A stretch of DNA of 36,021 nt from Dehalococcoidia bacterium (GCA_034420915.1 DAOUKW010000077.1:1-36021); one strand, 5' to 3'. Counted from the first letter of the stretch, positions 1,832 to 27,897 are shown. Notes: generated from the letters alone by a model not told the origin. Translations and numbers: made by a program.

Positions 1832-4246
1832 GTGGAATGCCGCGGACTGCACTGGTCGGACCAGGCAGCCAATCGGAGTGACGATTTGAGCCGACAGGAT
1901 GAGCGAGACCGAGAGAACGCGGCCCTCCGTGACCGCCTATCCCGCCTGAGCGAGGCCGGACTCCGCATCAACGAAGACCTGGACTTCGACACGGTGTTGC
2001 AAGAGGTGGTGGACGAGGCGCGATCTCTCACCTCCTCGCGCTACGGGGCGATCACCGTCTTTAATGAGGTTGGGCATATACCCGACTTCATCGTCTCCGG
2101 CTTGACCCGGGAGGAGCACCAGGGGTTTTGGGACATGCCGGAAGGGCCGGGATTCTTCGAATACCTCAGCAGCCTTGCCGAGCCCCTGCGGGTCCCGGAT
2201 ATCGAGGGCCACCTGAGAGAACTGAACATGCCTGAGTTCGTGCCCTCCGTACCGGTGACCTCCCTGCTGGTAGCCCCGATTCGCCACAGGGGCGTCGCGG
2301 TCGGCACCATCTATGTGGCTCACGGGGCGGATGGAAAGGAGTTCACGCAAGAGGACGAGGAGACCCTGGTTCTTTTTGCCTCGCAGGCGGCGATGGCCAT
2401 CGCCAACGCCCGCCGGCACCGGGAGGAGCAGCGGGCCAAGGCGGACCTGGAGACACTGATAGACACGTCTCCCGTTGGCGTGGTCGTCCTGGATGCGTTG
2501 ACGGGGGCCCCCAAGTCCTTCAATCGGGAAACCCGGAGGATCATCGACACCATACGGAATGCCGGGCAGTCACCCGAGCAGTTGTTGGAGGAGTTGACTT
2601 TCAGGCGGGCCGATGGACGGGAGGTCTCCCTGCGGGAGTTCCCGATGGCCGAGCTCCTCAGCACGGGAGAGACTGTACGGGCCGAGGAGATTGTCATGCG
2701 CGCCGCTGACGGGCGGAGCGTCACGGTACTACTCAACGCCACCCCCATCCTCTCCAAGGAAGATACGGTGGAGTCTGTCGTCGTCACGCTGCAGGACATG
2801 GCGGACGTGGAGGAACTGGAGCGGCTGCGGGCTGACTTCCTGGCGATGGTGAGCCACCAGCTGAGAACTCCTCTGACCTCTATCAAGGGCTCCGTCTCTA
2901 CGATTATGGATGCGGAGACGGACCTCGACCCTGCCGTGGTCCGCCAGTTCCTTCGGATCATCGAGGACCAGACCGATCACATGAACGCGCTGGTTGCAGA
3001 CCTGCTCGACGTGGCCCGTATCGAGACGGGAACGCTGCCGGTCAATCCGGAACCTACAGAGGTGGCCGTACTGGTGGATAGGGCACGCAGCGCCTTTGTC
3101 ACCGCAGGAGGCAGGAACAACCTCGCAATCGACGTTGACCCGAACCTGCCCCTGGTGATGGCAGACAGGCGGCGCATCGTCCAGGTGCTCAGCAATCTGC
3201 TGTTCAACGCGACCGATAACTCGTCAGAGTCATCCCTCATCAGGGTGACCGCTGTGTGGAATGGCGTTCACGTTGCGATGTCGGTGGCCGACGATGGGCG
3301 GGGCATCCCTGCGGAGAGGCTGCCGCACCTGTTTCGCAAGTTCTCTGCGACAAACTCCGAGGAGCATGGAGGGGACACGGGGCTTGGCCTCGCCATCTGT
3401 AAGGGCATAGTGGAAGCGCATGGGGGCCGCATCTGGGGCGAGAGCGACGGGCCGGGAATGGGGGCGCGTTTCACTTTCACCCTTCCATCTGTCGAAAACT
3501 CCGGAAGCGGCGCGGTCGACAGATCTTCCCCGACCTCAACGCAGCGTGAACTACGGGTGGAGGAGCGGGTGCGCGTTCTGGCCGTGGACGACGACCCCAA
3601 CGATCTCCGTTACATCCGCGACACACTTGCAAAGTCGGGCTACGAACCGATCGTCACCGGAGAGCCGGAGGAGGCGCTGCGCCTCGTGGAGAAGGGTAGG
3701 CCGGAGCTTGCGCTTCTGGATCTGATGCTCCCGGGAACGGACGGTATCGAGCTGATGAAGGAAATCCTCGATGTGGCCGATGTGCCGGTCATCTTCCTGT
3801 CTGCGTACGGACGGGAAGAACTGGTTGCCAGGGCATTCGACATGGGGGCCACGGATTATGTCGTAAAGCCGTTCTCCCCGACGGAACTCTCGGCGAGGAT
3901 CAGGGCAGCCCTGCGCAGACGGACGGCCGCAGAGCCGTCGGAGCCTTACGTGGTGGGCAACCTGACCATCGACTACACCGGGCGCAGGGTAACCCTTGCC
4001 GGAAATCCCGTCCATCTCACGCTGACTGAGTATCGCGTGCTGGGCGAACTCTCGGCCAATGCAGGGCAGGTGGTGACGTATGAGCGCCTTTTGGCTCGGG
4101 TCTGGGGTGCGAAGAACGCCGGGGACGTGAGGCCCATGCGCACCATCGTGAACAAAATCCGCCGCAAGCTGGGAGAGGACACCCAAAGGCCTGCTTATAT
4201 CTTCACCGAGCCCCGCGTGGGATACCGGATGCCGAGAGGGGAGTAG
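1832..4246 (+). CDS. Cytoplasmic hybrid sensor histidine kinase fused to a complete OmpR-family response regulator (GAF-PAS-HisKA-HATPase-REC-winged helix)
   Basis: GAF-like N-terminus (SSRYGAITVF...VAPIRHRGVAVGTIYV). PAS-like segment (LIDTSPVGVVVLD...). H-box FLAMVSHQLRTPLTSI. ATPase motifs (DDGRGIP, GDTGLGLAICKGIVEAHGGRIW). REC (VLAVDDDP...LALLDLMLPGTDG...VVKPF). OmpR-type wHTH (LTLTEYRVLGEL...RVGYRM). No hydrophobic TM segment. Start is uncertain: GTG 1832 per track, or TTG 1886 preceded by GGAG (1875..1878). Confidence 0.9.
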   Translation: MECRGLHWSDQAANRSDDLSRQDERDRENAALRDRLSRLSEAGLRINEDLDFDTVLQEVVDEARSLTSSRYGAITVFNEVGHIPDFIVSGLTREEHQGFWDMPEGPGFFEYLSSLAEPLRVPDIEGHLRELNMPEFVPSVPVTSLLVAPIRHRGVAVGTIYVAHGADGKEFTQEDEETLVLFASQAAMAIANARRHREEQRAKADLETLIDTSPVGVVVLDALTGAPKSFNRETRRIIDTIRNAGQSPEQLLEELTFRRADGREVSLREFPMAELLSTGETVRAEEIVMRAADGRSVTVLLNATPILSKEDTVESVVVTLQDMADVEELERLRADFLAMVSHQLRTPLTSIKGSVSTIMDAETDLDPAVVRQFLRIIEDQTDHMNALVADLLDVARIETGTLPVNPEPTEVAVLVDRARSAFVTAGGRNNLAIDVDPNLPLVMADRRRIVQVLSNLLFNATDNSSESSLIRVTAVWNGVHVAMSVADDGRGIPAERLPHLFRKFSATNSEEHGGDTGLGLAICKGIVEAHGGRIWGESDGPGMGARFTFTLPSVENSGSGAVDRSSPTSTQRELRVEERVRVLAVDDDPNDLRYIRDTLAKSGYEPIVTGEPEEALRLVEKGRPELALLDLMLPGTDGIELMKEILDVADVPVIFLSAYGREELVARAFDMGATDYVVKPFSPTELSARIRAALRRRTAAEPSEPYVVGNLTIDYTGRRVTLAGNPVHLTLTEYRVLGELSANAGQVVTYERLLARVWGAKNAGDVRPMRTIVNKIRRKLGEDTQRPAYIFTEPRVGYRMPRGE

Positions 4247-4300: not shown

Positions 4301-6949
4301 ATGATGCGCAGGGGATTGCGACCGGTTGTCACGATTGCGCTTTTCTTCGCCATTACGGGCACAGCATGCGCCGACGCGGCACCGAGGCCAGGCTCCTTCT
4401 CCACGCCCACCAACACGCGGCAACCTGTTCCATCTCCCATCGTGTTGAATATCCAGTCCGATTCCAACACACCGGCGCCCAGCCCGACGCCGATTCCTTT
4501 GCCCGCGCCGAGTGCCCCAACCACGCCGGTTCCGACAGCAACACCTGTGTTGAACCTCGGGCCAACGCCGATTCCGATTGTTGTCCCGCCGTCGCACCTG
4601 GCCTCGGAACGGGTGGCGCTCGCCGTCATTCATAGGGCGATGGGCGGGAGTGTCTACAGTGACATACGGAATTGGTTGAGCGATGACCCTTTAGGGAAAT
4701 GGCACGGAGTGACAACCGACGAGAATGATAGGGTCATTGGGCTTGAGCTGGTGAATGCGGAGCTTACAGGGAGCATCCCGCCGGAAATTGGCAATCTTAC
4801 TCACCTGCAGACTCTCACAATTGCCGGCAACAGGGAGATGAGAGGGCCCATTCCTCCGGAGATTGGAAACCTGACCAACCTGAAGGAGCTTACCCTTAGC
4901 GCGACCGGCTTGTTGGGAGAAATCCCGCCGGAGATCGGCTCTCTAACCAACCTTGAACGTCTGACCATCTCCCATGACGGGTTGGGAGGTCCCATCCCGG
5001 AAGAGCTTGGCAATCTGACCAAGCTCACCTCATTGGATCTCTCCGGAAACCTGCTGAACGGAACGATTCCAGGTTCGCTTGGCAGGTTAACCAATCTCAC
5101 TGAGCTGAACCTTTATTCCAATATAGTGAACGGTCCTCTTCCCGAAGAGCTCTTCGAGCTGGAGAACCTGAAGACTCTAACCCTTTCAAGAAACGAGTTG
5201 GACATCCCCTTTCCCCGGGGTGTAATCAGTTTCCCCAACCTGGAAAACCTCCACCTGGGATACGCCGGGTTGACGGGACCAATCCCACTTGAATTGAGCG
5301 GCATGCAGAAGCTGAAGACATTGGACCTATTCGGGAACTCCCTTGTCGGGCCTATTCCGCCTGAAATCGGTGAGATGACGGCCCTTGAAACGCTGCAGCT
5401 TGGAGGCAATGAACTCACCGGACCTATACCAGAGGAACTGGGCAATCTTCGAAACCTGCAGGGCCTCTTCATCAGCGAGAATACGCTAACAGGGTCGATC
5501 CCGACATCACTTTGGGAACTGAACTTGCTGCAAACAATGAATCTCAAAGAGAACCGCTTGTCCGGCCAGATTCCGCATGAAATAGGCGGACTGTCGGAGC
5601 TGGTTACGATTGACATGTCCAACAACGCTTTGACAGGGTCCATTCCACCTGCATTGCTCGAGCTCCCTGCCATCCAGTCGGTAAATCTCTCCCGGAACAG
5701 CCTGTCCGGACGTATCCCTTCGGAGTTCCCTGACTCAAGCACTTTGCACACCCTGAATCTCTCTCACAACGATATTGGCGGGGTCATTCCGAATGAAATT
5801 CAAAGGTTCTTGAGCCTTCGATTCCTGGACTTATCAGGAAATAAGCTCACCGGTGGCATCCCCGTGGAATTCAGGGATATGCAGTCCTTGGAAGAAGTTG
5901 ACCTGTCCATGAACGACTTGTCAGGCCCACTCCCCCCCGAACTCGGAGAGATGAGCCTCATAAACGTGCTCGATCTTTCGGGCAATCGTCTTACTGGAAA
6001 CGTGCCGCCTGAGTGGGCCGGTATGAGGAAATTGAGATCGCTGAATCTCCGGGATAACGATCTCAGGGGCAAGGCGCCGACTGCGCTTCCCGATAGTGAA
6101 CTGACGCTTGATCTGTCCGGGAACAGGTTCAGCGGTAAGATTCCCGCCGAGCTTGGCGCGGCGAAACGCCTGAAGTCCCTTGACCTTTCCCGGAACGAGC
6201 TGACCGGGTGGATTCCTGAAGAACTGGGGGTATTGACCAACCTGGAGTCTCTCGATCTGTCCATGAACGGCCTGACCGGTCCCATCATTCCCAGGCTTGC
6301 AAATCTGTATCGTCTAAAGCGGCTCGACCTTGCCGACAATGGATTGTCCGGCGAGATTCCAACTACTATTGACGCCCTCCGGAACCTCAAGCACCTGGAC
6401 CTTTCTGATAACAGTCTCACCGGAACGATTCCTCCGCCGCTGGGTCATCTCAACGCCCTCGTGCACCTTGACCTCTCCGGCAATCGTCTCGAAGGCCCCA
6501 TCCCGACAGAACTTGGTAACATTTCACGTCTGACCTTCCTCTCCCTGTCAAACAACGATCTAACGGGTTCGATCCCTCCGGAACTGGAGCGCCTTTGGCA
6601 ACTGGAAACGCTGGCCCTTTCGGATAACCGATTGAGCGGCGACATCCCTGCCGGGATACGTACAGATCGATTACGCCACGTAGATCTCTCAAGAAACCAG
6701 TTGACCGGCCGGATCCCACCCTGGCTTGGGGGCCATTTCAATCTGGAGTCATTGCTGCTTTCGGAAAACCGGTTGAGGGGGACTATCCCGGCCCGATACG
6801 GTGAAGTTCCGAAACTGGCAGAGTTGCGAGTAGAGGGCAACCATCTGGAGGGTTGTGTTCCGGAGACCCTGGCGACTATTGATGTGTTGGTTGTCAGTCC
6901 GCAGGAGGGCGACACGGAAACATTGCCGTTCTGCCGGAAGGATCCATGA
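4301..6949 (+). CDS. Secreted (lipobox-like signal) giant leucine-rich repeat protein, about 30 plant-specific-type 24-aa LRRs
   Basis: MMRRGLRPVVTIALFFAITGTAC signal, Pro/Thr linker, N-cap (..NWLSDDPLGKWHGVTTDENDRVIGLEL). About 30 units of L..L..L.L..N.LtG.IP.ElGnL, counted by hand. C-terminal cap NHLEGCVP...LPFC. Confidence 0.9.
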   Translation: MMRRGLRPVVTIALFFAITGTACADAAPRPGSFSTPTNTRQPVPSPIVLNIQSDSNTPAPSPTPIPLPAPSAPTTPVPTATPVLNLGPTPIPIVVPPSHLASERVALAVIHRAMGGSVYSDIRNWLSDDPLGKWHGVTTDENDRVIGLELVNAELTGSIPPEIGNLTHLQTLTIAGNREMRGPIPPEIGNLTNLKELTLSATGLLGEIPPEIGSLTNLERLTISHDGLGGPIPEELGNLTKLTSLDLSGNLLNGTIPGSLGRLTNLTELNLYSNIVNGPLPEELFELENLKTLTLSRNELDIPFPRGVISFPNLENLHLGYAGLTGPIPLELSGMQKLKTLDLFGNSLVGPIPPEIGEMTALETLQLGGNELTGPIPEELGNLRNLQGLFISENTLTGSIPTSLWELNLLQTMNLKENRLSGQIPHEIGGLSELVTIDMSNNALTGSIPPALLELPAIQSVNLSRNSLSGRIPSEFPDSSTLHTLNLSHNDIGGVIPNEIQRFLSLRFLDLSGNKLTGGIPVEFRDMQSLEEVDLSMNDLSGPLPPELGEMSLINVLDLSGNRLTGNVPPEWAGMRKLRSLNLRDNDLRGKAPTALPDSELTLDLSGNRFSGKIPAELGAAKRLKSLDLSRNELTGWIPEELGVLTNLESLDLSMNGLTGPIIPRLANLYRLKRLDLADNGLSGEIPTTIDALRNLKHLDLSDNSLTGTIPPPLGHLNALVHLDLSGNRLEGPIPTELGNISRLTFLSLSNNDLTGSIPPELERLWQLETLALSDNRLSGDIPAGIRTDRLRHVDLSRNQLTGRIPPWLGGHFNLESLLLSENRLRGTIPARYGEVPKLAELRVEGNHLEGCVPETLATIDVLVVSPQEGDTETLPFCRKDP

Positions 6950-9381
6950 GCATGGGCTTCTTTACAGATAAACGACGTCTTCAGCAGCTGGGAACCGTTG
7001 CCCTTTTCACACTCAGTGCCTTTGTGCTGACGGTTGCCTGCGACCGTATCGAGCAAGAGACAGCCATTGTCACTCCCGGATCGACAGCCGGGCCAATTCC
7101 GGGCTTGGCGCTGCCCACCTCAACGCCAATTCCAACGCCCAGGGTCTTACCCACTCCAACTCCAACCAGTCTTCCCACACCCACTCCCTTGCCGACCGCC
7201 ACGCCGGTGCCGTCAATCGAAACGGACCGCGCCGCTCTTGTTGCCTTATTCGAGGCGACGGGGGGTGAAAACTGGCTGCACAAAGAGAACTGGCTGAGTG
7301 ACGAGCCAATGGGAACCTGGTCCGGTGTTACAACCCACGGGGACGGGCGGGTTGGCAGACTTTATCTGCAGGAGTACGGATTGTCCGGCGAGCTCCCACC
7401 CGAGATTGGAAACCTCACCAGGCTCAGAGGAATGTGGCTTGGCTCCAACCAACTGACTGGGCGGATTCCAGGCAGACTCGGCAATCTCACAGAGTTGGAG
7501 ACACTGGACCTTGAAGGCAACGAGTTGACCGGTCCAATCCCGCAGAACCTTGCCAATCTAACTGGGCTGATCCACCTCAGGCTTGCCGGGAACCGACTGG
7601 TAGGGCGCATTCCCCCTGATCTTGCCTTCCTGTCCGAGATCGAGCTGTTGGATCTCGCCGACAACGAACTGAGGGGGCCAATTCCGCTTGCGCTTGGCAA
7701 CATGACCAAGATGGAAGACCTGCTGCTTGGAGGCAATACACTGAGCGGCCCAATCCCACCCAATCTGGTCAACCTGAGCGACTTACGAGTGCTGGATCTG
7801 TCCGACAATGAGTTCACTGGCTCAATACCGACCGAGCTAGTCCATCTGACCAACCTTGAGACGCTGGACGTGTCCCAAAACATGTTGACGGGGTCGATAC
7901 CGATTGAGCTTACAAATATGCTCGCTCTGCACGTCCTCAATCTCTCGCAGAACAGACTGTCCGGCCCGATCCCTCCCGAATTCCAAAACCTCCTCAACCT
8001 CAGAAAACTGCACCTGGCTACCAATCAGTTGACAGGCTCCGTGCCTACGCAACTGGCAAACCTCTCCAACCTGAACGTTCTGGATCTCTCAAACAACTTG
8101 CTGACGGGCGAGTTCCCTTCGGAAATCGAGAAACTCAGAGACCTGCATGTCCTTAATCTCGACGGCAACAGCATCGCCGGGGTTCCAGTATCCGATCGAC
8201 CGGCGCTCATCGCGTTCTATCACGCAACGGGCGGGGATAACTGGCACAACAAGAGCAACTGGCTCAGCGATACTCCGATTGGGACATGGCATGGCGTGAA
8301 GAGTGACGGGGGGCGGCGTGTTATTGAACTACGGCTGGGCAACAACAACCTTGTGGGCCACATCCCCCCTGAGATCGGCAACCTGGCGCAGATGCAGTTT
8401 CTCAGTTTGACAGCCAATCAACTGAGCGGTGTCCTTCCTCCGGAATTCGGCAATCTGTCCAGCCTTGAGACCGCGTTTCTATTTCGCAACCAGCTGACAA
8501 CTCCAATCCCGAGTGAAGTGGCAAATCTCACGAGCCTGGAATTGCTGGACCTGTCACAGAATCCGTTGGATGACCTATTCCCCGTCGCATTGACGAGGCT
8601 GACAGGACTGGAAAAACTGACGCTTTCGAACTGCGGGCTGCGCGGTCGCATTCCGGCTGTCATCGGCAACATGGAGAACCTAAGGGAGTTGGAGCTTTCA
8701 CACAACAGCATTACGAGCCCTATCCCGGAGTCAATTACAGATCTCGATAGATTGTCGAATCTTGATCTGAGGGATAATGCACTTAGCGGTTCATTCCCGC
8801 GAGAAGTGGTTGAAATTGGGAGTCTAAGGTCGCTTGACCTTAGAAATAACGAGCTGACCGGCCCCATTCCGTCCTCACTGGCTCAATTGGAAGACATGTC
8901 CTATCTGTCTCTCGGCGGGAACGAGTTAACCGGACCGATCCCGCCCGAAATTGCCCGGATGAGCAGCCTTGGATGGCTCCTCCTTTCGGGTAATGAATTC
9001 TCTGGCTCCATTCCGTCCTGGATAGGAAGCCTGGAGGAGTTGTTGTATTTGGACCTCTCCCACAATCGACTAACCGGCCCTATCCCGACCGAGCTCGGCA
9101 ATCTCGAGAAGCTGCTCTATATGTCCCTGCAGGGCAATGAATTAAGCGGACCAATACCGGCCGAGTTCAGGAATCTGAAGGGCCTGCAGAGCTTTATCAT
9201 TTCTGACAACGAGATTACCGGCTCGATCCCCCCATGGATTGGCGAGATGCCAGGTATGTGGCGTATATGGGTTGATGGGAACAGGCTTGAGGGCTGCATT
9301 CCGAAACCACTCATGTACCTGAGCGAATTGGCTGTGAATCCGCAGCGAGGGCAGCAGACTGAATTGGAGTTCTGCGGGTAG
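6946..9381 (+). CDS. Secreted lipoprotein-like LRR protein with two N-cap+LRR modules (about 12 + 14 repeats)
   Basis: ATGA start/stop overlap with the upstream gene (6946..6949). Signal ..FTLSAFVLTVAC, then Pro/Thr linker. Cap 1 is DRAALVALFEATGGENWLHKENWLSDEPMGTWSGVTT (from 7225). Cap 2 is DRPALIAFYHATGGDNWHNKSNWLSDTPIGTWHGVKS (8191..8337). C-terminal cap NRLEGCIP...LEFCG. Confidence 0.9.
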   Translation: MSMGFFTDKRRLQQLGTVALFTLSAFVLTVACDRIEQETAIVTPGSTAGPIPGLALPTSTPIPTPRVLPTPTPTSLPTPTPLPTATPVPSIETDRAALVALFEATGGENWLHKENWLSDEPMGTWSGVTTHGDGRVGRLYLQEYGLSGELPPEIGNLTRLRGMWLGSNQLTGRIPGRLGNLTELETLDLEGNELTGPIPQNLANLTGLIHLRLAGNRLVGRIPPDLAFLSEIELLDLADNELRGPIPLALGNMTKMEDLLLGGNTLSGPIPPNLVNLSDLRVLDLSDNEFTGSIPTELVHLTNLETLDVSQNMLTGSIPIELTNMLALHVLNLSQNRLSGPIPPEFQNLLNLRKLHLATNQLTGSVPTQLANLSNLNVLDLSNNLLTGEFPSEIEKLRDLHVLNLDGNSIAGVPVSDRPALIAFYHATGGDNWHNKSNWLSDTPIGTWHGVKSDGGRRVIELRLGNNNLVGHIPPEIGNLAQMQFLSLTANQLSGVLPPEFGNLSSLETAFLFRNQLTTPIPSEVANLTSLELLDLSQNPLDDLFPVALTRLTGLEKLTLSNCGLRGRIPAVIGNMENLRELELSHNSITSPIPESITDLDRLSNLDLRDNALSGSFPREVVEIGSLRSLDLRNNELTGPIPSSLAQLEDMSYLSLGGNELTGPIPPEIARMSSLGWLLLSGNEFSGSIPSWIGSLEELLYLDLSHNRLTGPIPTELGNLEKLLYMSLQGNELSGPIPAEFRNLKGLQSFIISDNEITGSIPPWIGEMPGMWRIWVDGNRLEGCIPKPLMYLSELAVNPQRGQQTELEFCG

Positions 9382-9733
9382 ATCCTGACGATTACGCGTC
9401 CCCGACAGCTTACGAGAGCCTGGCTTCACTTAGTCCCTGGTCTCGTGGTGAGTTTGAGAAAGCCAAACCGGAGCAAGGAGTACCCCTGGGCGAACTGTAT
9501 TGCGAACCTTCCTATTGAAGGTTGAGTTGAAAGTGGCGTTTGGTAAGAGGAAACGGGGCGGGTAGGAGCGTAACGTCTTTGCGGGTCTAGTACTGTAGGA
9601 CAGGCCCACGGATGATTCTCAAGGGCATAGTGACCACCAGCTCAGGTCTTCCCGACTGAGAATTGCAGCACGAATCTGTATGGCGGTCTCATATAGGCGG
9701 GTGATTCTCCTTGGATATCTGCACATGCAAACG

Positions 9734-9821
9734 CTAGAGACTCTTCATTGAACTGGTAAGTGCCGAATCACACTCGCAAGGCGCCAATGTGTTTGCTCCA
9801 AACGAGAGCATTGCTGCAACT
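9734..9821 (-). repeat. Copy 1 of an 88-nt conserved non-coding element; abuts and overlaps the stop codon of the 9820..12804 gene
   Basis: Ungapped alignment with 13385..13472 gives 69/88 identical positions by hand count, including the identical 26-mer ctggtaagtgccgaatcacactc-context, gtttgctc and ctgcaact. Confidence 0.75.
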
Positions 9822-12804
9822 AGGAGTCGCAGAAAGGCAGGCCGAGGCGAACGAGATCGTTGTCAGCTTGGTTATTATCGCGCTCGCCCGTGATGGCGAG
9901 CAACTTGGCCGGTATGCATCCCCTTAGCCGGTTGTGGCCAAGCCACAGCACTTCCAGCTTGGCGAGATTGCCCAGTTCGGAGGGTATCATCCCGCTCAAC
10001 TGGTTTCCGAAGAGCGACAGGTGCGTTAGGTTGGCGAGGCCGCCCAGTTCTGGCGGGATGGGCCCGCTCAACCGGTTCGTGGAGAGTAACAGATGCGTCA
10101 GGTTGGCAAGGCTGCCCAGTTCCGTCGGTATCGTCCCGCTCAGCTTGTTACCACTAAGGTTCAGGTCTTCCAAATGAATGAGATCGCCCAGCCTGGTCGG
10201 TATTTCGCTAGTCAACTGATTGTGTGAAAGTCTCAGAGATTGCAGCTTGGCGAGATTGCCCAATTCCGCCGGTATCTCTCCACTCAACTGGTTAGACCAA
10301 AGCCCCAGCGCTTGCAATTTGGCAAGACTGCCAAGCTCCGCCGGTATCTCCCCTGTCAACTCGTTGTTACCGAGAGACAGGAATTGCAGCTTGGCGAGAT
10401 TGCCCAGTTCCGTCGGTATCGTCCCGCTCAACTGATTATCGCGGAGCGACAGATGCCTCAGGTCAGCGAGGCTCCCCAGTTCTGTCGGTATCGGTCCGCT
10501 CAACTGATTCCCCCCCAGGTCTAGTGCAACGACAGAACCGTCACAGTCGGTGAGTACCCCGTGCCATTGGTCCAGGGGACTGTCGCTCAACCAGTTCTGA
10601 CTGTTCTTCCACGACGCGCCGTTGGTGGCATGATGGAGCGCGACTAATGCGTTCCTCACTTCACTTGAGGGCGCGTCCTTGGGTGGTGGGGTATAGCCCT
10701 GTATCGGCCTGCCATGAAGACAGTTATAGAGAAAGCGATAGTCATCCCGTTTTGATTGCGGAGTGTTCTTCAAGAACGTCTGGTAAATCTTGTCCTCCGT
10801 CGCCTCTGTGCTCCTGCTGGTCTCGTACAATTCCCGCAGAGCGGACAATACCACCTCGTGCCCCAAGATGTGGTGCAATCCGGTCAGGAAGTGAAGGCCC
10901 AAGCGATATGGGCAGGTATTAACTCGCCCATCCTCCACTACACTCAATCCACTCGTGATCCACTCCTGCACATTCATCGTGCTCACGGAAAAGCAATCGT
11001 CGGATATCCGTACCTTTGAAGAGATGTACTCCTCATAGAAAGAGATTTCCAGATCAGCCTCTTTCAGAACGGCGTAGCTCATCAAGAATTCCGCCGCGCC
11101 CTCGGTAAGCCATTCCGGAGTACGTGCTCCTCCTCCACCAAAATAGAAGTGTGCCATCTCGTGATACAGTACCCTCTTGCGGGAGGCTGATTTGATTGCC
11201 GCGCGTGATCCGTTATTCACTCCAGCCGCATCACTTTCGGCTATCTGGAATTCGCTTTCCAGCAAAAGGATGACATCGGACTTCGGCCACGGAACTTCCA
11301 TGAATTCCTCCAAGTGCTCGGTGGCGAAAACCATAGCGTCCAGCACAGTATGCAGCTCGTCCTCCGACCGCCCGACCGCGAAGAGGTCCACTTCGCCCGC
11401 CAGGGGAAGATCGATCGTCTCCGACCACACCACGCCGCCCCGCACCATCTCATCGAAGAACTCCTGCGAAACTATGGCGCTTCCTATCGTGACGATCAGC
11501 GCAGCCTCCTCGGCGGTCAGCCCGTCCTCCACCCACGGCTCTCGCATGAGCCGCTGCGCCCGGCTGGGATGGTTGGAGCGAATCTTCCACAGACTGGACA
11601 TGGTGTCTTGCATGAGCTGCCCGGTCTGATCCGGAATGGTCGTCACCAGCACCGCCTCGTCAAGGCGGGTACTGGCTAGGCGGGAGACCAGACTGAGCAC
11701 ATCCAACTCATCGTGCGTGACCCCGTCGGAAAGCCACAGTGAGCCCGCTACTCGCTGAGACATCGACCGGTCTATTTGGGCGAGCTCCCCAATGCGGAAC
11801 AGTGCCCGCCGTTCGGCGTTGGTGGCGCCGTCCGCGATCCACGGCAGGTTATCCGTATTGAACTCCGAAACCCTTGCAGTCACTACAGCGGAGCAGTTGT
11901 TGGTCGTGTCAGACTCACCCGATACCGGCTCAGCGCATGCGCCATAGTAGTACACGCCCGGAGTGGGCGGCGCATGCGTAAGGATTGATTCGGCGCCACT
12001 ATCAGATGGATTCAGTCTGTGAATCTGGTCCGTCCCCACTTCAGTATCTGTGGACGTGATAGTCGCGTCAGTAGAACGGTAGTAGCGCAGCGTGGTGGGA
12101 CCAGATACCCATGCACCCTGGTTCCGCACGGAGAACCTCAGTACCAGGGTCTGACCTAGCATTGGGTTGCTATCACTCACTGCTGGCTCGACCACCGTCA
12201 GATCGGGTGGAGGTGGAAGCACGGTCACGGCGACGGAGGAGGAGCAGTTGTTCGTCCTATTGGACTCGTGGGGTACGGGCGCCACGCAGGCACCATAGTA
12301 GTATGTGCCCGGCGAAGGCGGCGTAACCGTGAGTATCGACTCAGTGCTGCTTGCGGATGCCTCCAGCCTTGCCACCAGGATCGAGTCCACCTCGTCATCT
12401 TCGGTCGAGATGGTTGAGTCGGTGGAGCGGTAGTAACGTAGCGTGGTGGGGCTCGATGCCCCGGGCCCCTCGTTCCGCACAGTGGCGCTCAGCGTGAAGG
12501 ACTGGCCTCCCATAAAGTCTCTGCCGCTTACTGTTAGCAGATCTACCACCAGGTCGGGCGGTGACGGTGTCGGCGTGGGGGTCGGTGATGGCGTTGCTGT
12601 GGGGGTTGGTGATGGTATAGGAGTGTGCGCCGGGGTCGAAGTGAGTGCAGGAGTTGCCGTCGGCGCGGGTGAAGGGGTGGCGGTGGGCATCGGCGTTGAT
12701 GTTGCCTCGTCGGAGCATCCGGCGACGAGCAGGATCAGTAGTGCCGTGCCAACAACAGCCAGACTCAGCTTGGGTCTTGACATTCCGAATGCCTCACTGG
12801 ACAT
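9820..12804 (-). CDS. Lipoprotein: 2 x CARDB-like domains + MA-clan HExxH metallopeptidase + N-capped plant-type LRR module (9 repeats)
   Basis: Signal MSRPKLSLAVVGTALLILLVAGC. The more likely start is ATG 12783, preceded by GAGG; the track start is 12804. Pro/Thr linker follows. Two paralogous about 110-aa units (PDL.V......GQ...L...VRN.G...S..TTLRYYRSTD..I...D.EV......YYYGAC..PV..ES..TNNCS). HEMAH at 11149..11163, then EWLTEGAAEF. Cap VRNALVALHHATNGASWKNSQNWLSDSPLDQWHGVLTD. 9 LRRs. C-terminal cap NRLRGCIP...LPFCDS. Confidence 0.9.
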   Translation of the reverse strand: MSSEAFGMSRPKLSLAVVGTALLILLVAGCSDEATSTPMPTATPSPAPTATPALTSTPAHTPIPSPTPTATPSPTPTPTPSPPDLVVDLLTVSGRDFMGGQSFTLSATVRNEGPGASSPTTLRYYRSTDSTISTEDDEVDSILVARLEASASSTESILTVTPPSPGTYYYGACVAPVPHESNRTNNCSSSVAVTVLPPPPDLTVVEPAVSDSNPMLGQTLVLRFSVRNQGAWVSGPTTLRYYRSTDATITSTDTEVGTDQIHRLNPSDSGAESILTHAPPTPGVYYYGACAEPVSGESDTTNNCSAVVTARVSEFNTDNLPWIADGATNAERRALFRIGELAQIDRSMSQRVAGSLWLSDGVTHDELDVLSLVSRLASTRLDEAVLVTTIPDQTGQLMQDTMSSLWKIRSNHPSRAQRLMREPWVEDGLTAEEAALIVTIGSAIVSQEFFDEMVRGGVVWSETIDLPLAGEVDLFAVGRSEDELHTVLDAMVFATEHLEEFMEVPWPKSDVILLLESEFQIAESDAAGVNNGSRAAIKSASRKRVLYHEMAHFYFGGGGARTPEWLTEGAAEFLMSYAVLKEADLEISFYEEYISSKVRISDDCFSVSTMNVQEWITSGLSVVEDGRVNTCPYRLGLHFLTGLHHILGHEVVLSALRELYETSRSTEATEDKIYQTFLKNTPQSKRDDYRFLYNCLHGRPIQGYTPPPKDAPSSEVRNALVALHHATNGASWKNSQNWLSDSPLDQWHGVLTDCDGSVVALDLGGNQLSGPIPTELGSLADLRHLSLRDNQLSGTIPTELGNLAKLQFLSLGNNELTGEIPAELGSLAKLQALGLWSNQLSGEIPAELGNLAKLQSLRLSHNQLTSEIPTRLGDLIHLEDLNLSGNKLSGTIPTELGSLANLTHLLLSTNRLSGPIPPELGGLANLTHLSLFGNQLSGMIPSELGNLAKLEVLWLGHNRLRGCIPAKLLAITGERDNNQADNDLVRLGLPFCDS

Positions 12805-13043
12805 GATGAAGTCCGAGGATTTGTGGAAGAATTCGCTTCACACAAGTTACTAATCCGGCGCCCATCACAGGGCTATGCAGTGCCCTCACCGTCCGGATCC
12901 ATGTTCCAGTCAGCGTAGACGCCCGTGCGGACCGTGGGCGACTGTAACTCGCCGGTTGTCTTGGCGACACCCCCAACGCTCGTGGGCTGGCCGGAGGTCT
13001 AAGTGTCCAGGTATGGCTGGAGGTGATGACGCCACGATTCTCC

Positions 13044-13346
13044 TCAGTCAGCCCAAAACCACGTCTTGAAGGATGCGGTGCAAGACGCCATTCCCAACAT
13101 CACGCCCACTCCAAGGCCGAAGAATACGCCGCGAGCGGAGCGTCCTCTTGCCATTAGTGCCCCGCCGATAATCGTGGCGATGGTCGAGCAGGCAATCATA
13201 AGAAAGATGATTAGCAGGAAGGCGAAATAATATGGGGCCTCGAAAGCCAAAGCAGCTTCTGAGGGGTCAATGGACGACAATAAGAGTACGGGCGCGATGA
13301 CAAGTGGCACCGCAGTAAGAACCAGTGCCATGCTGAACGTACGCAT
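13044..13346 (-). CDS. Small hydrophobic membrane protein (about 3 TM), function unknown
   Basis: 100-aa ORF with three hydrophobic stretches. AGGGAG lies a few nt upstream of ATG 13346. No recognisable family. Confidence 0.5.
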   Translation of the reverse strand: MRTFSMALVLTAVPLVIAPVLLLSSIDPSEAALAFEAPYYFAFLLIIFLMIACSTIATIIGGALMARGRSARGVFFGLGVGVMLGMASCTASFKTWFWAD

Positions 13347-13384
13347 GCCGACTCCCTGTCAGTGAGTTCAATGCCCAAATAACA

Positions 13385-13472
13385 CTAGGCATTCTGCATC
13401 GATCTGGTAAGTGCCGAATCACACTCTCTAGGCAACACTTTGTTTGCTCTGAGAGAGAGTGTTTCTGCAACT
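13385..13472 (-). repeat. Copy 2 of the 88-nt conserved element, upstream of the small membrane protein gene
   Basis: See 9734..9821. Contains a 9-bp perfect stem ACACTCTCT (13421..13429) / AGAGAGTGT (13454..13462). Confidence 0.75.
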
Positions 13473-13480
13473 TTTCACTC

Positions 13481-13509
13481 TTGCTGACATAAACGCAAAT
13501 GGCTAGATT
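13481..13509 (+). promoter_or_regulatory. Possible promoter of the NarL-type two-component operon
   Basis: TTGCTG (13481..13486), 17-nt spacer, TAGATT (13504..13509), about 70 nt upstream of ATG 13577. Weak hexamers. Confidence 0.25.
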
Positions 13510-13576
13510 AGTGGCCAACTACACACTGTCGTGACCGCCAAACACTCTACGCGTTCACACACTTACAGGAGAGAAC

Positions 13577-14854
13577 ATGCTTCAGGCACCTCGCCAAACC
13601 AGGGGCCTGTACTCGATGAAGGAAGTGTTCGGTGCAGTGCGGGCGCGGGTTTTTCAGATGCTCTGGCTCGACCCGGACGAGGTATCGTACGCAGCCAATA
13701 TTGCGGTGTGGGTTCGCTGGTTCCTCTGGGTCGGCGCCATAACCACTCTTGCCCACGAATCCGAGTTCACTTATTTCCAATCCCTACGCCAGACCATTTC
13801 GGTCATGCTCATGCACGTCTCAGTGGCCACCCTCAACGCCCATGTGCATTACCGTCTGCTTACCAAGCGTCGAGTGACGTGGCGTCACATGATTGTCCTC
13901 AGCGCGTTGGATCTAGCACTGATCACGGTCACCGTCGTCGATCTGGGGTACGACTCAATCTGGTTCGTCGGCTACTATCCCGCGCTTGCCATCTTCGCTG
14001 CCGTCTTCACTTCCGCTCTACTGAATCTCACCTGGACCACGGTCGCCTCCTCCATTTATGTCGGCGTGATTCTAACCGACGGGTCGGGTCTCACCTTCGA
14101 TGTGATCGATGAGAAGGCGCTCTATATAAGAGTGATTGCGATGTTCGGGGTAGTTCTTGTGATCAACTTCATCACTCGGTTCCAACGGCGCAGGGCGAGG
14201 GAGGCGATCGAAAGGGAAGGGGCGCTGCAACGAGAGCGGATCGAGCTTTCCCAGGCGATTCACGATACGGCCGCGCAGACGGCGTACATGATCGGCCTGG
14301 GCATAGACGCAGCCAAGCAGGTTGCCGGAAACTCGAACGAGGAGCTCACCTCCAGACTGGAAGCGACATCGCAGCTTTGCAAGACTGCCGTCTGGCAGCT
14401 GAGGCGCCCAATCGACATGGGTCGCATCTTCGATGGCCGGGAACTGGGCTGGACCCTGGACTCGCACGTTGCCACGTTCAGATCCATCACATCGATAGAG
14501 GCGGAGCTGAGGCAGAACGGTGCAGAGCCGCCACTTTCGGTTGAGGCAAAGAGTCGGCTGTTTACCATAGCGCATAACGCACTTGCCAACGCCTTCCGTC
14601 ATGCCGGGGCGAGCCGCGTGTTGGTCGACCTCGACTTCAGACGGGATGAACTCAGACTGTCGGTGTCGGACGACGGGGCGGGGCTTCCGGATGACTACGA
14701 GGAACGGGGCCACGGCTTCGCAAACATGCGGGCGGACGCTGAGCGTCTGGGCGGACGCCTTGTCGTTGAGGCCAGAGGCTTGACCGGGGGCGCGAGAGTG
14801 ACTTGTTTGGTGCCATTGGAACGTGGTGGAAAGGGGAGATACGTTGTCAACTGA
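13577..14854 (+). CDS. Polytopic membrane sensor histidine kinase, HisKA_3 (NarX/DesK-like) class
   Basis: AGGAGAG 4 nt upstream of the ATG. N-terminal half has multiple hydrophobic helices and no large loop. H-box LSQAIHDTAAQTAY. ATPase motifs NALANAFRHA, DDGAGLP, GHGFANM. Confidence 0.85.
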   Translation: MLQAPRQTRGLYSMKEVFGAVRARVFQMLWLDPDEVSYAANIAVWVRWFLWVGAITTLAHESEFTYFQSLRQTISVMLMHVSVATLNAHVHYRLLTKRRVTWRHMIVLSALDLALITVTVVDLGYDSIWFVGYYPALAIFAAVFTSALLNLTWTTVASSIYVGVILTDGSGLTFDVIDEKALYIRVIAMFGVVLVINFITRFQRRRAREAIEREGALQRERIELSQAIHDTAAQTAYMIGLGIDAAKQVAGNSNEELTSRLEATSQLCKTAVWQLRRPIDMGRIFDGRELGWTLDSHVATFRSITSIEAELRQNGAEPPLSVEAKSRLFTIAHNALANAFRHAGASRVLVDLDFRRDELRLSVSDDGAGLPDDYEERGHGFANMRADAERLGGRLVVEARGLTGGARVTCLVPLERGGKGRYVVN

Positions 14855-15497
14855 GACTCGTCGAATAAGGGTGCTGCTTGCGGACGACCATTCGATCGTG
14901 CGGGAAGGTCTTCAGTCGATGTTGGAGCGGTCCGAGGAGTTCGAGGTGGTGGGGGAGGCCAGGGACGGAGTGGAGGCAGTGGAAGCGGCGTCCAAACTCT
15001 CACCCGACGTAATCATCATGGATGTCATGATGCCCAAGAAGGACGGAGTGGAGGCATGCCGAGAGATCATGGAATCTCTCCCCGATACAAGGGTGATCAT
15101 GCTGACCGCCTCGACCGAGGCGGACGCTGTGATAGAGGCGATGGCCGCCGGAGCGGCGAGCTATCTTCAGAAAGTGTCCGGCGTGGACAATCTCCTGAGT
15201 ACGCTGAAGGGCGCGGCTGATGATGAGATGCGCATGCCGACCGAAGTGGTAAGGAGGGTCTTTGACAGGATACGGAGCGAGACACAATCGAAGGGAGAGT
15301 TCGACCTGACCCCGAGAGAGAAGGAGATACTTGTATCTTTCTGCCGAGGTATGTCATACGTCACCATCGCAGAGGCAAGGGGAGTCAAGCCGGTTACCAT
15401 CCGAAACGCCATCTACACCATCCAGGTGAAGATGGGTGTTTCCTCGAAGCAGGAGATTGTAGTCTTGGCAGTCCGGAACGGCCTCCTTGATGACTGA
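14823..15497 (+). CDS. NarL/LuxR-family response regulator
   Basis: REC (RVLLADDHSIVREGL...DVIIMDVMMPKKDG...) plus LuxR HTH (LTPREKEILVSFCRGMSYVTIAEARGVKPVTIRNAIYTIQVKMG). The likely real start is in-frame TTG 14844, preceded by GGGGAG. Either start overlaps the kinase stop (14852..14854). Confidence 0.9.
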   Translation: MVERGDTLSTETRRIRVLLADDHSIVREGLQSMLERSEEFEVVGEARDGVEAVEAASKLSPDVIIMDVMMPKKDGVEACREIMESLPDTRVIMLTASTEADAVIEAMAAGAASYLQKVSGVDNLLSTLKGAADDEMRMPTEVVRRVFDRIRSETQSKGEFDLTPREKEILVSFCRGMSYVTIAEARGVKPVTIRNAIYTIQVKMGVSSKQEIVVLAVRNGLLDD

Positions 15498-24593: not shown

Positions 24594-24616
24594 CGGGCGG
24601 CCGGCTGAAGGAGTAG

Positions 24617-26479: not shown

Positions 26480-26517
26480 CAACGAGACTGATTAGGAAAC
26501 GCTAAAGGACATCGCAC

Positions 26518-27120
<603 letters not shown>

Positions 27121-27157
27121 GACGGATTAAGGCACACGCAAAGCGAGGAACGGCAAC

Positions 27158-27469
27158 ATGGCGACAGCAGAGCAACAGGCGCACACGGAAGACCACCCGA
27201 CTCCGCGTACCTATGTCCAAGTCGCGATTATCCTCACGGTCATCACGATTGTTGAGGTGGCCATCGTCATTGTTGATGTGCCCTCCCTTTTCCTTGTGTC
27301 ATCTTTGCTCGCCCTGTCAGCCGTCAAATTCGCCTTCGTTGTCGGCTGGTTCATGCATCTCAAGTTCGACGCGAGACTGTACCAGGCCCTCTTCCTTGGC
27401 GGCCTTTTCCTGGCGATAGCCGTCCTGTTGGCACTGGTCGCGCTCTTCGAGAACTTCACGCTCCCATGA
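27158..27469 (+). CDS. ctaF: Cytochrome c oxidase subunit IV (prokaryotic type)
   Basis: 103 aa, 3 TM. KFAFVVGWFMHLKFD signature. Position after ctaE. Confidence 0.8.
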   Translation: MATAEQQAHTEDHPTPRTYVQVAIILTVITIVEVAIVIVDVPSLFLVSSLLALSAVKFAFVVGWFMHLKFDARLYQALFLGGLFLAIAVLLALVALFENFTLP

Positions 27470-27518
27470 GAAACGGCACGAGAGACCATTAGAGGAACCG
27501 GAAAAAGGCAGGACAGGC

Positions 27519-27800
27519 ATGGCGGCGGACCACGACGAACACACAGGAACTAACAACGTAATGGATCGGCTTATTGTTCCGATTCTGTTGCCGGTTGTCG
27601 CCCTCATCGTCACCATCGCGCTGATTGTTGCCATCGGCCTACTCCTGTACGCCGTCGTCCCCCATGACTACGTGACGCTGGCCGGTGAAAAGGTCTACTA
27701 CTCGGTTCCTGTCGCGCTTGGTCTTGCGCTGATCTTTCTCATCGGATTCGCTTTCCTGGCGTCGCGCGCGCCGGACGAAAATAACGACGATTCCGAATAG
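27519..27800 (+). CDS. Small 2-TM membrane protein of unknown function inside the oxidase operon
   Basis: 93-aa ORF, same strand, between ctaF and ctaG. Two clear hydrophobic helices and an acidic C-terminus. Confidence 0.45.
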   Translation: MAADHDEHTGTNNVMDRLIVPILLPVVALIVTIALIVAIGLLLYAVVPHDYVTLAGEKVYYSVPVALGLALIFLIGFAFLASRAPDENNDDSE

Positions 27801-27897
27801 TAGTCTGAAACCGCCAGTTGTCGGCGGCCCAACTGCTTTGGCACATTCAGAGCGCTCCTGCATGCGTAACGCGCCGAAAAGGGCGTAGGATTGCGGC

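Follow-up and report, generated by a model that had tools for sequence, protein, structure and literature searches.

The peptidase–LRR gene in the window, the whole stretch of 36,021 nucleotides analysed from a Dehalococcoidia bacterium (GCA_034420915.1 DAOUKW010000077.1:1-36021), encodes a 994-residue lipoprotein in which known building blocks are newly combined, an M1-like gluzincin peptidase being followed by a plant-type leucine-rich repeat (LRR) domain. The balance of probability slightly favours reading it as a surface-tethered zinc endopeptidase with the LRR as a ligand-binding exosite; here we infer activity, specificity, ligand binding, regulation and role. The gene is a single unbroken open reading frame from ATG to stop at 9820..12804 on the minus strand. 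From the N-terminus the protein consists of an LVAGC lipobox, a Pro/Thr linker, two CARDB domains, three WxxDG repeats, the gluzincin domain, an LRR N-cap, nine LRRs and a C-cap with two Cys residues, Cys963 and Cys992 (Table 1). An earlier note made from the DNA sequence had described such a single polypeptide, with two CARDB-like domains, an HExxH metallopeptidase and a capped LRR; each element that it listed lies where it had placed it, and its HEMAH codons map exactly to residues 548–552. The domain matches have E-values of 1e-18 to 1e-30, far from chance, and the peptidase region finds homologues down to E 1e-106. The exact 994-residue protein has no entry in the protein collection searched. 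The same architecture is present in related loci, and the related genomes found are all Dehalococcoidia/Chloroflexota MAGs.

Table 1. Features of the peptidase–LRR gene and of associated genes in the window (residue numbers refer to the 994-residue protein).
Feature	Position	Strand	Residues	Description and basis
Peptidase–LRR gene	9820..12804	(-)	1-994	Lipoprotein; stop codon 9820..9822; ORF, domain matches and related loci
Signal peptide and lipobox LVAGC (26-30)	12715..12804	(-)	1-30	Cys30 the predicted lipidated residue; read from sequence
Pro/Thr-rich linker	12559..12714	(-)	31-82	Presumed extended stalk; composition
CARDB domain 1	12220..12558	(-)	83-195	Cys173/Cys187; Pfam PF07705, best stretch 83-189
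CARDB domain 2	11869..12219	(-)	196-312	Cys290/Cys304; Pfam PF07705, second stretch
W-x-x-D-G helical-hairpin repeats	11434..11868	(-)	313-457	W322, W357, W424; AlphaFold helices and motif positions
Gluzincin catalytic domain, M1-like	10690..11433	(-)	458-705	Conserved columns, ERAP1/IRAP alignments, Foldseek
HEMAH	11149..11163	(-)	548-552	Conserved columns, ERAP1/IRAP alignments
E568	11101..11103	(-)	568	Conserved columns, ERAP1/IRAP alignments
Y633	10906..10908	(-)	633	Conserved columns, ERAP1/IRAP alignments
Further conserved Cys of catalytic domain		(-)	Cys604/Cys631, Cys695	
Short Pro-rich interdomain linker	10657..10689	(-)	706-716	Predicted ordered; kept in family consensus
LRR N-terminal cap	10537..10656	(-)	717-756	ALVALHHATNG..W...NWLSDSPLDQWHGVLTDCDG; Cys754; model helix and strand; kept in orthologues
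Nine 24-residue plant-specific-type LRRs	9889..10536	(-)	757-972	Ninth with Cys963; in-register repeats, Pfam LRR_1/4/8
C-terminal cap tail	9823..9888	(-)	973-994	Ends LGLPFCDS; Cys992
Truncated paralogue	1..1383	(-)		Lipoprotein, PT linker, WxxDG region, HEVAH...WLFEGGANF; C-terminus off-window
Two LRR-only exported proteins	4301..9381 (4301..6949, 6946..9381)	(+)		Same N-cap, PS-LRR and Cys C-cap; convergent with peptidase gene
Histidine kinase	13577..14854	(+)		HisKA_3 and HATPase_c (Pfam); several predicted TM helices; divergent from peptidase gene
LuxR/GerE-type response regulator	14823..15497	(+)		Pfam; orthologue follows kinase in same loci

Before the lipobox come an n-region containing Lys/Arg and then a hydrophobic core, and the last four lipobox residues (VAGC, 27–30) fit the pattern [LVI][ASTVI][GAS]C; the orthologues of L001, L003 and L007 have LLPGC at the same position. 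The Pro/Thr linker that follows has counterparts in the two neighbouring LRR proteins and in the truncated paralogue. The CARDB family PF07705 matches over two stretches (E 1.4e-18, 67.4 bits against a gathering cut-off of 22.7). The two units, proposed earlier to be paralogous, are 54% identical to one another (pairwise E 3e-39) and both end YYYGAC...ES..TNNCS. Between CARDB domain 2 and the catalytic core lies the WxxDG region, about 145 residues that are absent from the earlier note. It is modelled by AlphaFold as helices (H17-144 of the modelled fragment, pLDDT about 90). A Pfam search with the repeats gave no family, and up to 21 copies occur per family member; they are a new helical repeat specific to this family.

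The catalytic domain has, in sequence and model, the motif arrangement of a gluzincin (clan MA, subclan E), an HExxH helix followed by a helix with a conserved Glu. In the AlphaFold model of the WxxDG and peptidase fragment (pLDDT 90.7, pTM 0.90) helices 231-239 and 252-270 bear HExxH and the third-ligand Glu, respectively. Across an alignment of 35 sequences with identity down to 21–24%, residues H548, E549, H552, W565, E568, G569 and Y633 show no or almost no variation. E568, itself nearly invariant among the 35, falls within EWLTEGAAEF after HEMAH and aligns with the Glu of M1 WLNEG, and Y633 aligns with the Tyr of SY(D/F)KG. The earlier note would have been refuted had the HExxH region matched no MA-clan profile or lacked the third zinc ligand in a structural model; profiles do match, and E568, the predicted third ligand, sits on the next helix of the model. 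The Pfam Peptidase_M1 match (PF01433, E 9e-5 to 7e-4) is sub-threshold, scoring 19.7 bits with the whole protein and 22.5 bits with the fragment against a gathering value of 27.7, and only 8 of the 35 family members match this model at E <= 0.01. The family profile aligns HExxH, WLxEG and the catalytic Tyr with those of ERAP1 (E 3.8e-8), and the single sequence aligns with IRAP (E 4.5e-4). Foldseek returned 25 matches at E <= 0.001 (probability 1.0), all of them M1-fold chains and all but one M1 peptidases, with E 4e-5 to ERAP1, D. radiodurans M1, IRAP, ERAP2, PepN and F3 over 250–280 columns. By sequence profile and predicted fold, the peptidase and the M1 catalytic domain are remote homologues.

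The M1 zinc signature is HExxH-X18-E, and the exopeptidase motif of these enzymes is GxMEN. The spacing from H552 to E568 is 15 residues here and 11–15 in relatives, compared with 18 in M1. In place of GxMEN the family has G.N.GTH before HExxH, and the GAMEN of IRAP aligns with a non-conserved 'IAESD'. The M1 N-terminal β domain and the ERAP1_C-type C-terminal helical domain are likewise absent from the 994-residue protein. Since both the flanking domains and GxMEN are missing, the sequence makes an endopeptidase or oligopeptidase more likely than a classical aminopeptidase, absence of GxMEN being in itself no proof. At 50% identity the core family falls into about 1,700 clusters; it is without a Pfam or NCBIfam model. 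For the gene at 1..1383, suggested previously to share the peptidase fold, comparison with the peptidase part confirms true paralogy (E 1e-25, 23% identity over 342 residues). This gene also encodes a separate lipobox (LSGC) and a PT linker, and its closest relative, P0041, carries no LRR.

The LRR domain is built from nine in-register 24-residue units (residues 757–972) of consensus LxxLxLxxNQLSGxIPxELGxLA (KLQHLSLGGNQLSGEIPTELGSLA), and the DNA encoding it has a 72-bp period; with the N-cap and C-cap, this is the capped nine-repeat plant-type LRR that the earlier note had described. The units conform to the plant-specific (PS) class, in which tandem repeats of 23–25 residues follow LxxLxLxxNxL(t/s)GxIPxxLGxLxx (PMC2946307). 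The N-cap, modelled as a helix and a strand, contains a single Cys (C754), and LRRNT_2 gave no Pfam match in the 994-residue protein at E <= 1. At the other end, the ...GC[IV]P...L.FC ending is common to the orthologues and both neighbouring LRR proteins. In the PDB, the LRR domain best matches plant LRR receptor kinases; its nearest relatives by sequence and fold are the peptide-binding ectodomains of GSO1 (E 1.7e-184), PEPR1, FLS2, MIK2, PXY, HAESA and PSKR, with E down to 6e-20 by fold and 30–47% identity over the aligned repeats. Among orthologues the number of repeats ranges from 0 to 16 in the loci (motif count) and up to 26 in the representatives. Variability is concentrated on the concave face: the highest entropies fall on the x positions of LxxLxLxxN (2.1–2.6 bits within the protein, 3.2–3.9 bits over 156 units), against about 0–2 bits (up to 2.7) in the convex part. 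LRRs in general are highly variable at their concave positions, so this pattern points to no particular ligand.

The fusion of the two domains recurs. A database search for the architecture, as the earlier note had advised, found the peptidase with a C-terminal LRR on one reading frame at about 17 of the 22 independent loci from Dehalococcoidia/Chloroflexota MAGs, in 21 of the 141 top family representatives and in many metagenome proteins. The junction, CLHGRPIxGY followed by a short Pro-rich linker and ALVALxxATNG, is in frame and conserved over many independent assemblies. The other 120 representatives work without an LRR, so that this domain counts as an accessory, outside the catalytic mechanism; members of the family that lack it carry other accessory modules. 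The two-domain AlphaFold model (pTM 0.81, pLDDT 81–92 across the junction) predicts a rigid junction, the pTM being indirect evidence that the domains are fixed relative to each other. Cys695 and Cys754, on either side of it, are both present in 26 sequences, both missing in 4 and mixed in 1 (Fisher p 1.6e-4, the counts not being phylogenetically independent), and the neighbouring LRR-only proteins lack the N-cap Cys. This co-variation suggests that a Cys695–Cys754 disulfide probably staples the LRR to the catalytic domain.

Upstream of the peptidase–LRR gene, the histidine kinase is of the intramembrane type, without a sizeable extracellular domain. Orthologues of the kinase (about 50% identity) and of the regulator (about 58%) lie less than 10 kb from the peptidase–LRR gene in 7 other independent loci; their position and orientation vary there, and the other window genes tested are all absent. 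The linkage is confined to the closest clade, being missing at L002/L019, L006, L008, L009, L020 and all more distant loci. From this gene linkage, the kinase and LuxR-type regulator probably control expression of the peptidase–LRR gene.

A working model of the protein can be proposed. Predicted acylation of Cys30 would anchor the peptidase to the membrane, and the stalk of about 50 Pro/Thr-rich residues together with the two Ig-like CARDB domains would keep the enzyme off the membrane surface. H548, H552 and E568 would be the zinc ligands, E549 the general base and Y633 the transition-state stabilizer. The nine-repeat LRR, predicted to be held rigidly against the catalytic domain and probably stapled there by Cys695–Cys754, may bind an extended peptide or protein partner on its variable concave face, and so select or position what the peptidase cuts. 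Biologically, the protein could serve to scavenge proteins, or to interact with a host or community. Targeting of substrates by the LRR is plausible, with indirect support from the predicted rigid junction, the Cys co-variation, the concave variability and the peptide-binding plant relatives.

Instead of selecting substrates, the LRR might anchor the peptidase to the envelope or S-layer, or to other LRR proteins such as those encoded at 4301..9381, so forming a surface complex in which the enzyme would scavenge peptides and proteins with broad specificity. Within 8.5 kb the window encodes three LRR proteins that agree in N-cap, repeat type and Cys C-cap, most family members have other accessory modules and no LRR, so that the catalytic unit does not need one, and the aerobic respiratory genes (a caa3 oxidase operon and the Ccm system) fit, without showing, a scavenging lifestyle. 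We nevertheless consider anchoring unlikely: the lipid anchor and CARDB stalk already tether the protein, and the predicted rigid, Cys-stapled packing of the N-cap onto the catalytic domain is more in keeping with an exosite than with an anchor at a distance. Moreover, the neighbouring LRR genes are convergent on the opposite strand, and LRR-only genes accompany the orthologue in few loci only (L007, L013/L014 and L022). This arrangement and rarity leave the docking onto neighbouring LRR proteins put forward in the earlier note without specific support; the structural claims of the note stand. The possibility that the reading frame is an assembly or frameshift chimera, or that the peptidase is a catalytically dead scaffold, is already largely refuted and barely credible. 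Orthologues in L006, L013 and L025 are visibly frameshifted or truncated, and the window protein is itself missing from the protein collection, but the 994 codons run uninterrupted, the junction is kept in frame across independent assemblies, the model is confident throughout and the catalytic residues are all intact and conserved. The recurrence in about 17 of 22 loci likewise disposes of an artefactual joining of two genes, which the earlier note had named as a refuting outcome. The frameshifts in several orthologues mean that the gene is dispensable in some lineages.

A further reading gives the lipoprotein the part of extracellular sensor in a system of three components. A peptide or protein cue would be bound by the LRR and processed or terminated by the peptidase, and LRR occupancy would be relayed in the membrane to the kinase and on to the LuxR-type regulator. 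Control of sensor-less kinases by accessory lipoproteins is an established theme, as in LpqB–MtrB and CseA–CseC. Several TM helices are predicted for the kinase here, which has neither a sizeable extracellular loop nor a sensor domain of its own, the pair has stayed near the gene in the 7 other loci despite rearrangement, and the closest LRR relatives are peptide-hormone receptors. Plain transcriptional control of the peptidase gene accounts for the linkage equally well, however; this linkage does not extend beyond the closest clade, and the lipoprotein has no recognizable transmembrane or kinase-interaction element. A sensor role is distinctly unlikely. Its extension, a split functional analogue of the plant LRR receptor kinases in which the lipoprotein would capture an extracellular peptide or protein cue, perhaps from a host or the community, and process or clear it while the two-component system relays the state of the complex, is highly doubtful. 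The exosite reading is preferred to these.

These results define a type of modular surface protease in Dehalococcoidia-type Chloroflexota, bacteria known almost only from metagenomes. Its remote M1-like gluzincin core is accompanied by CARDB stalks and the new helical repeat, and in one sub-branch by a plant-type LRR that is attached, by prediction rigidly. A curated model for the core family would allow annotation of thousands of 'hypothetical' proteins, and with a sensor-less kinase linked to the gene, a tie to regulation or signalling can be put to the test. If the LRR is a substrate-selecting exosite, the protein would be a natural case of programmable protease targeting through a repeat scaffold, and could help to explain the function of LRR 'eukaryotic-like proteins' in such bacteria. 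LRR genes have been reported from sponge-symbiont SAR202 and Caldilineae genomes with a proposed role in host interaction (PMC6306507). That literature on sponge Chloroflexi gives numbers of LRR genes, with no description of a fusion to a peptidase.

With the M1 aminopeptidases (ERAP1/ERAP2/IRAP, PepN, tricorn-interacting factor F3 and the two-domain D. radiodurans M1) the protein shares the thermolysin-like catalytic fold, the HExxH helix, the Glu of WLxEG(F/A)A on the next helix and a downstream Tyr as in ERAP1/IRAP. It differs in lacking GxMEN and the flanking M1 domains, in its 15-residue spacing, and in having WxxDG repeats before and an LRR after the core. Recognition and catalysis are likewise joined on one polypeptide in the LRR–enzyme effectors, namely IpaH/SspH (LRR and NEL E3 ligase), XopL (with XL-box), XopAC/AvrAC (with Fic) and XopAE, in which the LRR selects the substrate. 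Here, in contrast, the enzyme is N-terminal, the LRR C-terminal and the activity that of a peptidase, and export is by a Sec/lipoprotein signal rather than type III secretion. Identity as a type III LRR effector was rejected, the NCBIfam scores (XopAE 79.4 against 600, XopAC 73.6 against 450 and XopL 37 against 500 bits) arising from the LRR only. Carboxypeptidase N also has a zinc metallopeptidase, CPN1, permanently associated with an LRR protein, CPN2; it is a eukaryotic plasma protein of family M14, encoded by two genes and assembled non-covalently, and its LRR subunit stabilizes rather than targets. The plant PS-LRR ectodomains (GSO1, PEPR1, FLS2, MIK2, PXY/TDR, HAESA, PSKR, PGIP and LRX) share the 24-residue repeat, the N-cap and the Cys C-cap. 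Compared with these, the present LRR is bacterial, borne on a lipoprotein, limited to nine repeats and partnered by a peptidase instead of a kinase or TM helix, and the lone Cys of its N-cap apparently has its partner in the peptidase domain, not in the cap itself.

The peptidase-LRR gene is a single uninterrupted ATG-to-stop open reading frame of 994 codons on the minus strand (9820..12804), and every feature that the earlier note had read in it is present. In the N-terminus MSSEAFGMSRPKLSLAVVGTALLILLVAGC, a basic n-region is followed by a hydrophobic core and then by a lipobox with its terminal Cys30. The PT linker follows, residues 31-82 being nearly all Pro, Thr, Ala or Ser. The CARDB-like pair is matched by Pfam (PF07705; E 1.4e-18; score 67.4 bits, cut-off 22.7) as two segments, which are paralogous (54% identity, E 3e-39) and both terminate YYYGAC...ES..TNNCS. 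The HEMAH motif forms residues 548-552 and maps exactly to 11149..11163. The LRR domain takes up the C-terminal 280 residues: the N-cap covers 717-756, the nine 24-residue repeats run in register from 757 to 972, and a tail covers 973-994, with Cys963 and Cys992 the likely C-cap pair. The truncated gene at 1..1383 (-), which had been thought to share the peptidase fold, is paralogous to the peptidase portion (342 aligned residues at 23% identity, E 1e-25) and likewise encodes a lipobox and a PT linker. A promoter search of 9300..13700 gave no sigma-70-like site, terminator-like sites occur there at chance level, and the sole match of an Rfam search was tRNA.

One region was absent from the earlier feature list. 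Residues 313-457 form helical hairpins in the model and carry the motif W-x-x-D-G-(x)-T..E at W322, W357 and W424. This WxxDG repeat matched no Pfam family and is the sole module type of the 994-residue protein that is not already known. It also occurs in the family proteins P0043, P0056 and P0082-P0224, and its copy number in family members reaches 21. Some ORFs, such as 7821..9617 of the related locus L017, seem to consist of the repeat alone.

No curated model describes the catalytic region. The Pfam matches, Peptidase_M1 (19.7-22.5 bits where 27.7 is required) and BSP, stay below threshold, and NCBIfam gave nothing meaningful. As a single sequence the region matches IRAP (E 4.5e-4), with HEMAH aligned on HELAH, WLTEGAAEF on WLNEGFATF and CPYRLG on SYFKG, and the same three correspondences are obtained when a 35-sequence family profile is compared with ERAP1 (E 3.8e-8). 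Residues 313-705 were modelled by AlphaFold with pLDDT 90.7 and pTM 0.90. Foldseek returned 25 matches in the PDB at E <= 0.001, all M1-fold chains and 24 of them M1 peptidases, including ERAP1, the two-domain M1 of D. radiodurans, IRAP and ERAP2; PepN and F3 lie just below this threshold, and all matches have probability 1.0 over 250-280 columns. The homology to the M1 catalytic domain is real despite the sub-threshold Pfam score. In the family alignment, which spans sequences with identity down to 21-24%, H548, E549, H552, W565, E568, G569, C604, C631 and Y633 are fully or almost fully conserved, and in the model the helix with the Glu directly follows the one with HExxH. The conserved catalytic residues, the consecutive helices and the M1 profile and fold matches supply both an MA-clan match and a predicted third zinc ligand, E568 on the helix after HExxH, the two points on which the earlier peptidase reading could have failed.

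The family differs from M1 in several respects. It lacks GxMEN and has G.N.GTH instead, the spacing between HExxH and Glu is 15 residues in the window protein and 11-15 in relatives compared with 18 in M1, and M1 domains I and IV are missing. As these defining features are absent and the Pfam score is below threshold, identity as an M1 aminopeptidase was rejected, and on sequence and model the enzyme is classed as an M1-like gluzincin. Because the anchor for a substrate N-terminus (GxMEN) is missing, endo- or oligopeptidase activity is predicted as more likely than aminopeptidase activity.

No exact copy of the window protein is recorded in the assembly collection, and a word-indexed search returned 73 clusters, at best 50% identical and nearly all from ENA metagenome assemblies. 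An exhaustive profile search of 1.84 billion representatives of 50%-identity clusters gave 3,607 proteins at E <= 1e-10, of which 1,719 reach E <= 1e-30. Architectures were counted in 143 newly returned representatives among 150 listed. The catalytic domain is present in 141 of the 143; among these listed matches 120 lack an LRR and 21 possess one, mostly C-terminal and with up to 26 repeats. With 120 of 141 lacking it, the LRR fusion is therefore a sub-branch of a large uncurated peptidase family, the non-LRR members of which receive no Pfam annotation at all.

The fusion itself recurs. One genome per species was scanned with patterns from an alignment of 11 closer sequences, and every one of the 22 loci obtained comes from a MAG titled Dehalococcoidia or Chloroflexota; the patterns are specific to the close subfamily, and this taxonomic uniformity sets no limits on how widely the larger family is spread. 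The peptidase ORF runs on, in about 17 of these 22 loci, into a C-terminal LRR that usually terminates ...NQLTGC[IV]P......L..C.., and Pfam confirmed the LRR in all eight orthologous ORFs scanned. The N-terminal modules of the orthologues are one or two CARDB, Big_12, or none. The junction is kept in frame, CLHGRPIPGY leading through a short Pro-rich linker to ALVALYNATNG...W.GV.TDCDG, and the linker is ordered in the AlphaFold model of residues 313-994 (pLDDT 88.1, pTM 0.81). Two domains of 390 and 290 residues joined by a free hinge would be expected to give a lower pTM. The concern that assembly or a frameshift had joined two genes can be set aside, since the fusion is found in so many MAG loci with its junction conserved in frame.

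Frameshift-split or truncated orthologues occur in three related loci (L006 7886..14641, L013 9320..12347 and L025 3840..6115) and are either pseudogenes or long-read homopolymer errors. Two further orthologous ORFs, L003 7793..12295 (1,500 aa) and L007 6851..12424 (1,857 aa), have an additional N-terminal LRR block and one or two extra upstream HExxH modules (LHE[LV][LM]H[QR]WA...) followed by a His-rich stretch. These modules are not recognized by Pfam and were rejected as members of the present peptidase family, being different and unrelated; the two ORFs may be multi-zincin polyproteins.

Two cysteines flank the junction. C695, just before it, and C754, the only Cys of the N-cap, are both present in 26 distinct sequences and both absent from 4, with 1 discordant sequence that has a Cys three residues upstream (Fisher p 1.6e-4, from counts that are not phylogenetically independent). 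The N-cap Cys is absent from both LRR-only neighbours. From this co-occurrence, C695 and C754 probably form an interdomain disulfide stapling the LRR to the peptidase.

The LRR repeats show the expected 72-bp period in the DNA, with only 70-74% identity between copies, so that they are old and not freshly duplicated. They fit the consensus of the plant-specific LRR class, LxxLxLxxNxL(t/s)GxIPxxLGxLxx of 23-25 residues (PMC2946307). Among solved structures the best sequence matches are ectodomains of plant receptor kinases, namely GSO1 (E 1.7e-184), PEPR1, FLS2, MIK2, ERL1, RGFR and PXY. A fold search returned the same plant ectodomains together with LRX and PGIP, and no PDB chain that spans both the peptidase and LRR domains of the model. 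Positional entropy peaks where the x residues of the concave beta strand face the solvent (2.1-2.6 bits for the nine window repeats, 3.2-3.9 bits for 156 orthologue units), the convex SGxIPxELGxL segment varies far less, and repeat number differs among orthologues. Concave variability and varying repeat number are the usual signature of a ligand-binding LRR, a signature that does not pinpoint the ligand.

Features of the peptidase-LRR gene and its surroundings
Feature	Position	Strand	Remarks
LRR-only exported protein 1	4301..6949		convergent with the peptidase gene
LRR-only exported protein 2	6946..9381	+	convergent with the peptidase gene
WxxDG helical-hairpin repeat, about 35 residues each	11434..11868	-	upstream of the catalytic domain
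100-aa ORF, three hydrophobic segments	13044..13346	-	between the peptidase gene and the kinase
Histidine kinase, HisKA_3 and HATPase_c	13577..14854		divergent from the peptidase gene, on its other flank
LuxR/GerE response regulator	14823..15497		follows the kinase
caa3-type oxidase operon	23466..28788		

The second LRR-only protein contains two LRR blocks, each with an ALxAxxxATGGxNW...W.GV N-cap (near residues 95 and 420), in what looks like an internal duplication of the entire capped domain. The G+C content of the LRR gene cluster (5001..11000) is 0.52-0.58 against about 0.59-0.64 in most of the remaining window, which may stem from the amino-acid make-up of LRRs or from a foreign source. 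The 100-residue ORF has no counterpart in any related locus; it was for that reason rejected as part of the system and may not be a real gene. In L023/L024 an insertion of two small genes (97 and 96 aa, 12419..13077) separates the peptidase-LRR gene from the kinase; these genes occur in those two loci only, with transposase genes nearby.

The remaining window contains the caa3-type cytochrome oxidase operon, a Ccm system and housekeeping genes; the oxidase and Ccm genes indicate that the source organism is aerobic. Downstream of the operon, a 634-aa ORF (28785..30689, +) fuses COX15/CtaA heme A synthase to UbiA/CtaB heme O synthase. An 804-aa polypeptide (1832..4246, +) with GAF, PAS, HisKA, HATPase_c, receiver and OmpR-type DNA-binding (Trans_reg_C) domains is a complete two-component pathway in one chain, and a 592-aa ORF (20894..22672, +) joins a calcineurin-like metallophosphoesterase to a C-terminal GNAT acetyltransferase.

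What the analysis establishes is which domains are present, which residues are conserved, that the fusion recurs, that its junction is predicted as rigid, that the two cysteines co-occur and that the kinase and regulator genes are linked to it. As to activity, specificity, ligand binding, regulation and biological role, we infer, with slightly more confidence than doubt, a gluzincin peptidase that would be lipid-anchored and mounted on a stalk, and whose rigidly attached LRR would serve as an exosite binding an extended peptide or a protein, with expression probably under the linked two-component system. Within 10 kb of the peptidase-LRR gene, the loci L001, L003, L004, L005, L007, L022 and L023/L024 carry orthologues of the kinase (identity about 50%) and of the regulator (about 58%), placed upstream and divergent in some, as in the window, and downstream and co-directional in others; these loci contain none of the other window genes tested, and the linkage is confined to the closest clade. 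The N-terminal half of the kinase reads as several hydrophobic helices without a sizeable extracellular domain. It is unlikely that the LRR serves instead to anchor or assemble a scavenging peptidase that is not selective. It is quite improbable that the lipoprotein provides the sensor arm for this sensor-less kinase in a three-component signalling system. That the gene is artefactual or the enzyme dead is barely credible beside the recurrent in-frame fusion and the conserved catalytic residues.

What is new in the fusion protein lies at the level of description: the combination of modules, the putatively stapled junction and the uncurated catalytic family. The fusion is solid and testable, and a protease with a fused binding domain would not greatly surprise a specialist. 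LRR genes of sponge-associated SAR202 and Caldilineae have been regarded as putative host-interaction factors (PMC6306507). Searches of the accessible literature gave no description of an LRR-gluzincin fusion, and nothing relevant on an LRR-metallopeptidase fusion in Dehalococcoidia or in bacterial lipoproteins, a weak negative. In concept the window protein comes closest to the bacterial LRR-enzyme effectors IpaH, XopL and XopAC. It is no member of those families, and identity as a Xop-type effector was rejected, the scores against the XopAE, XopAC and XopL models lying far below the cut-offs and covering the LRR alone. Carboxypeptidase N, which pairs a catalytic with an LRR subunit, is likewise conceptually near, and the window protein is not of that family either. 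By analogy, the protein may act like other enzymes with fused recognition domains.
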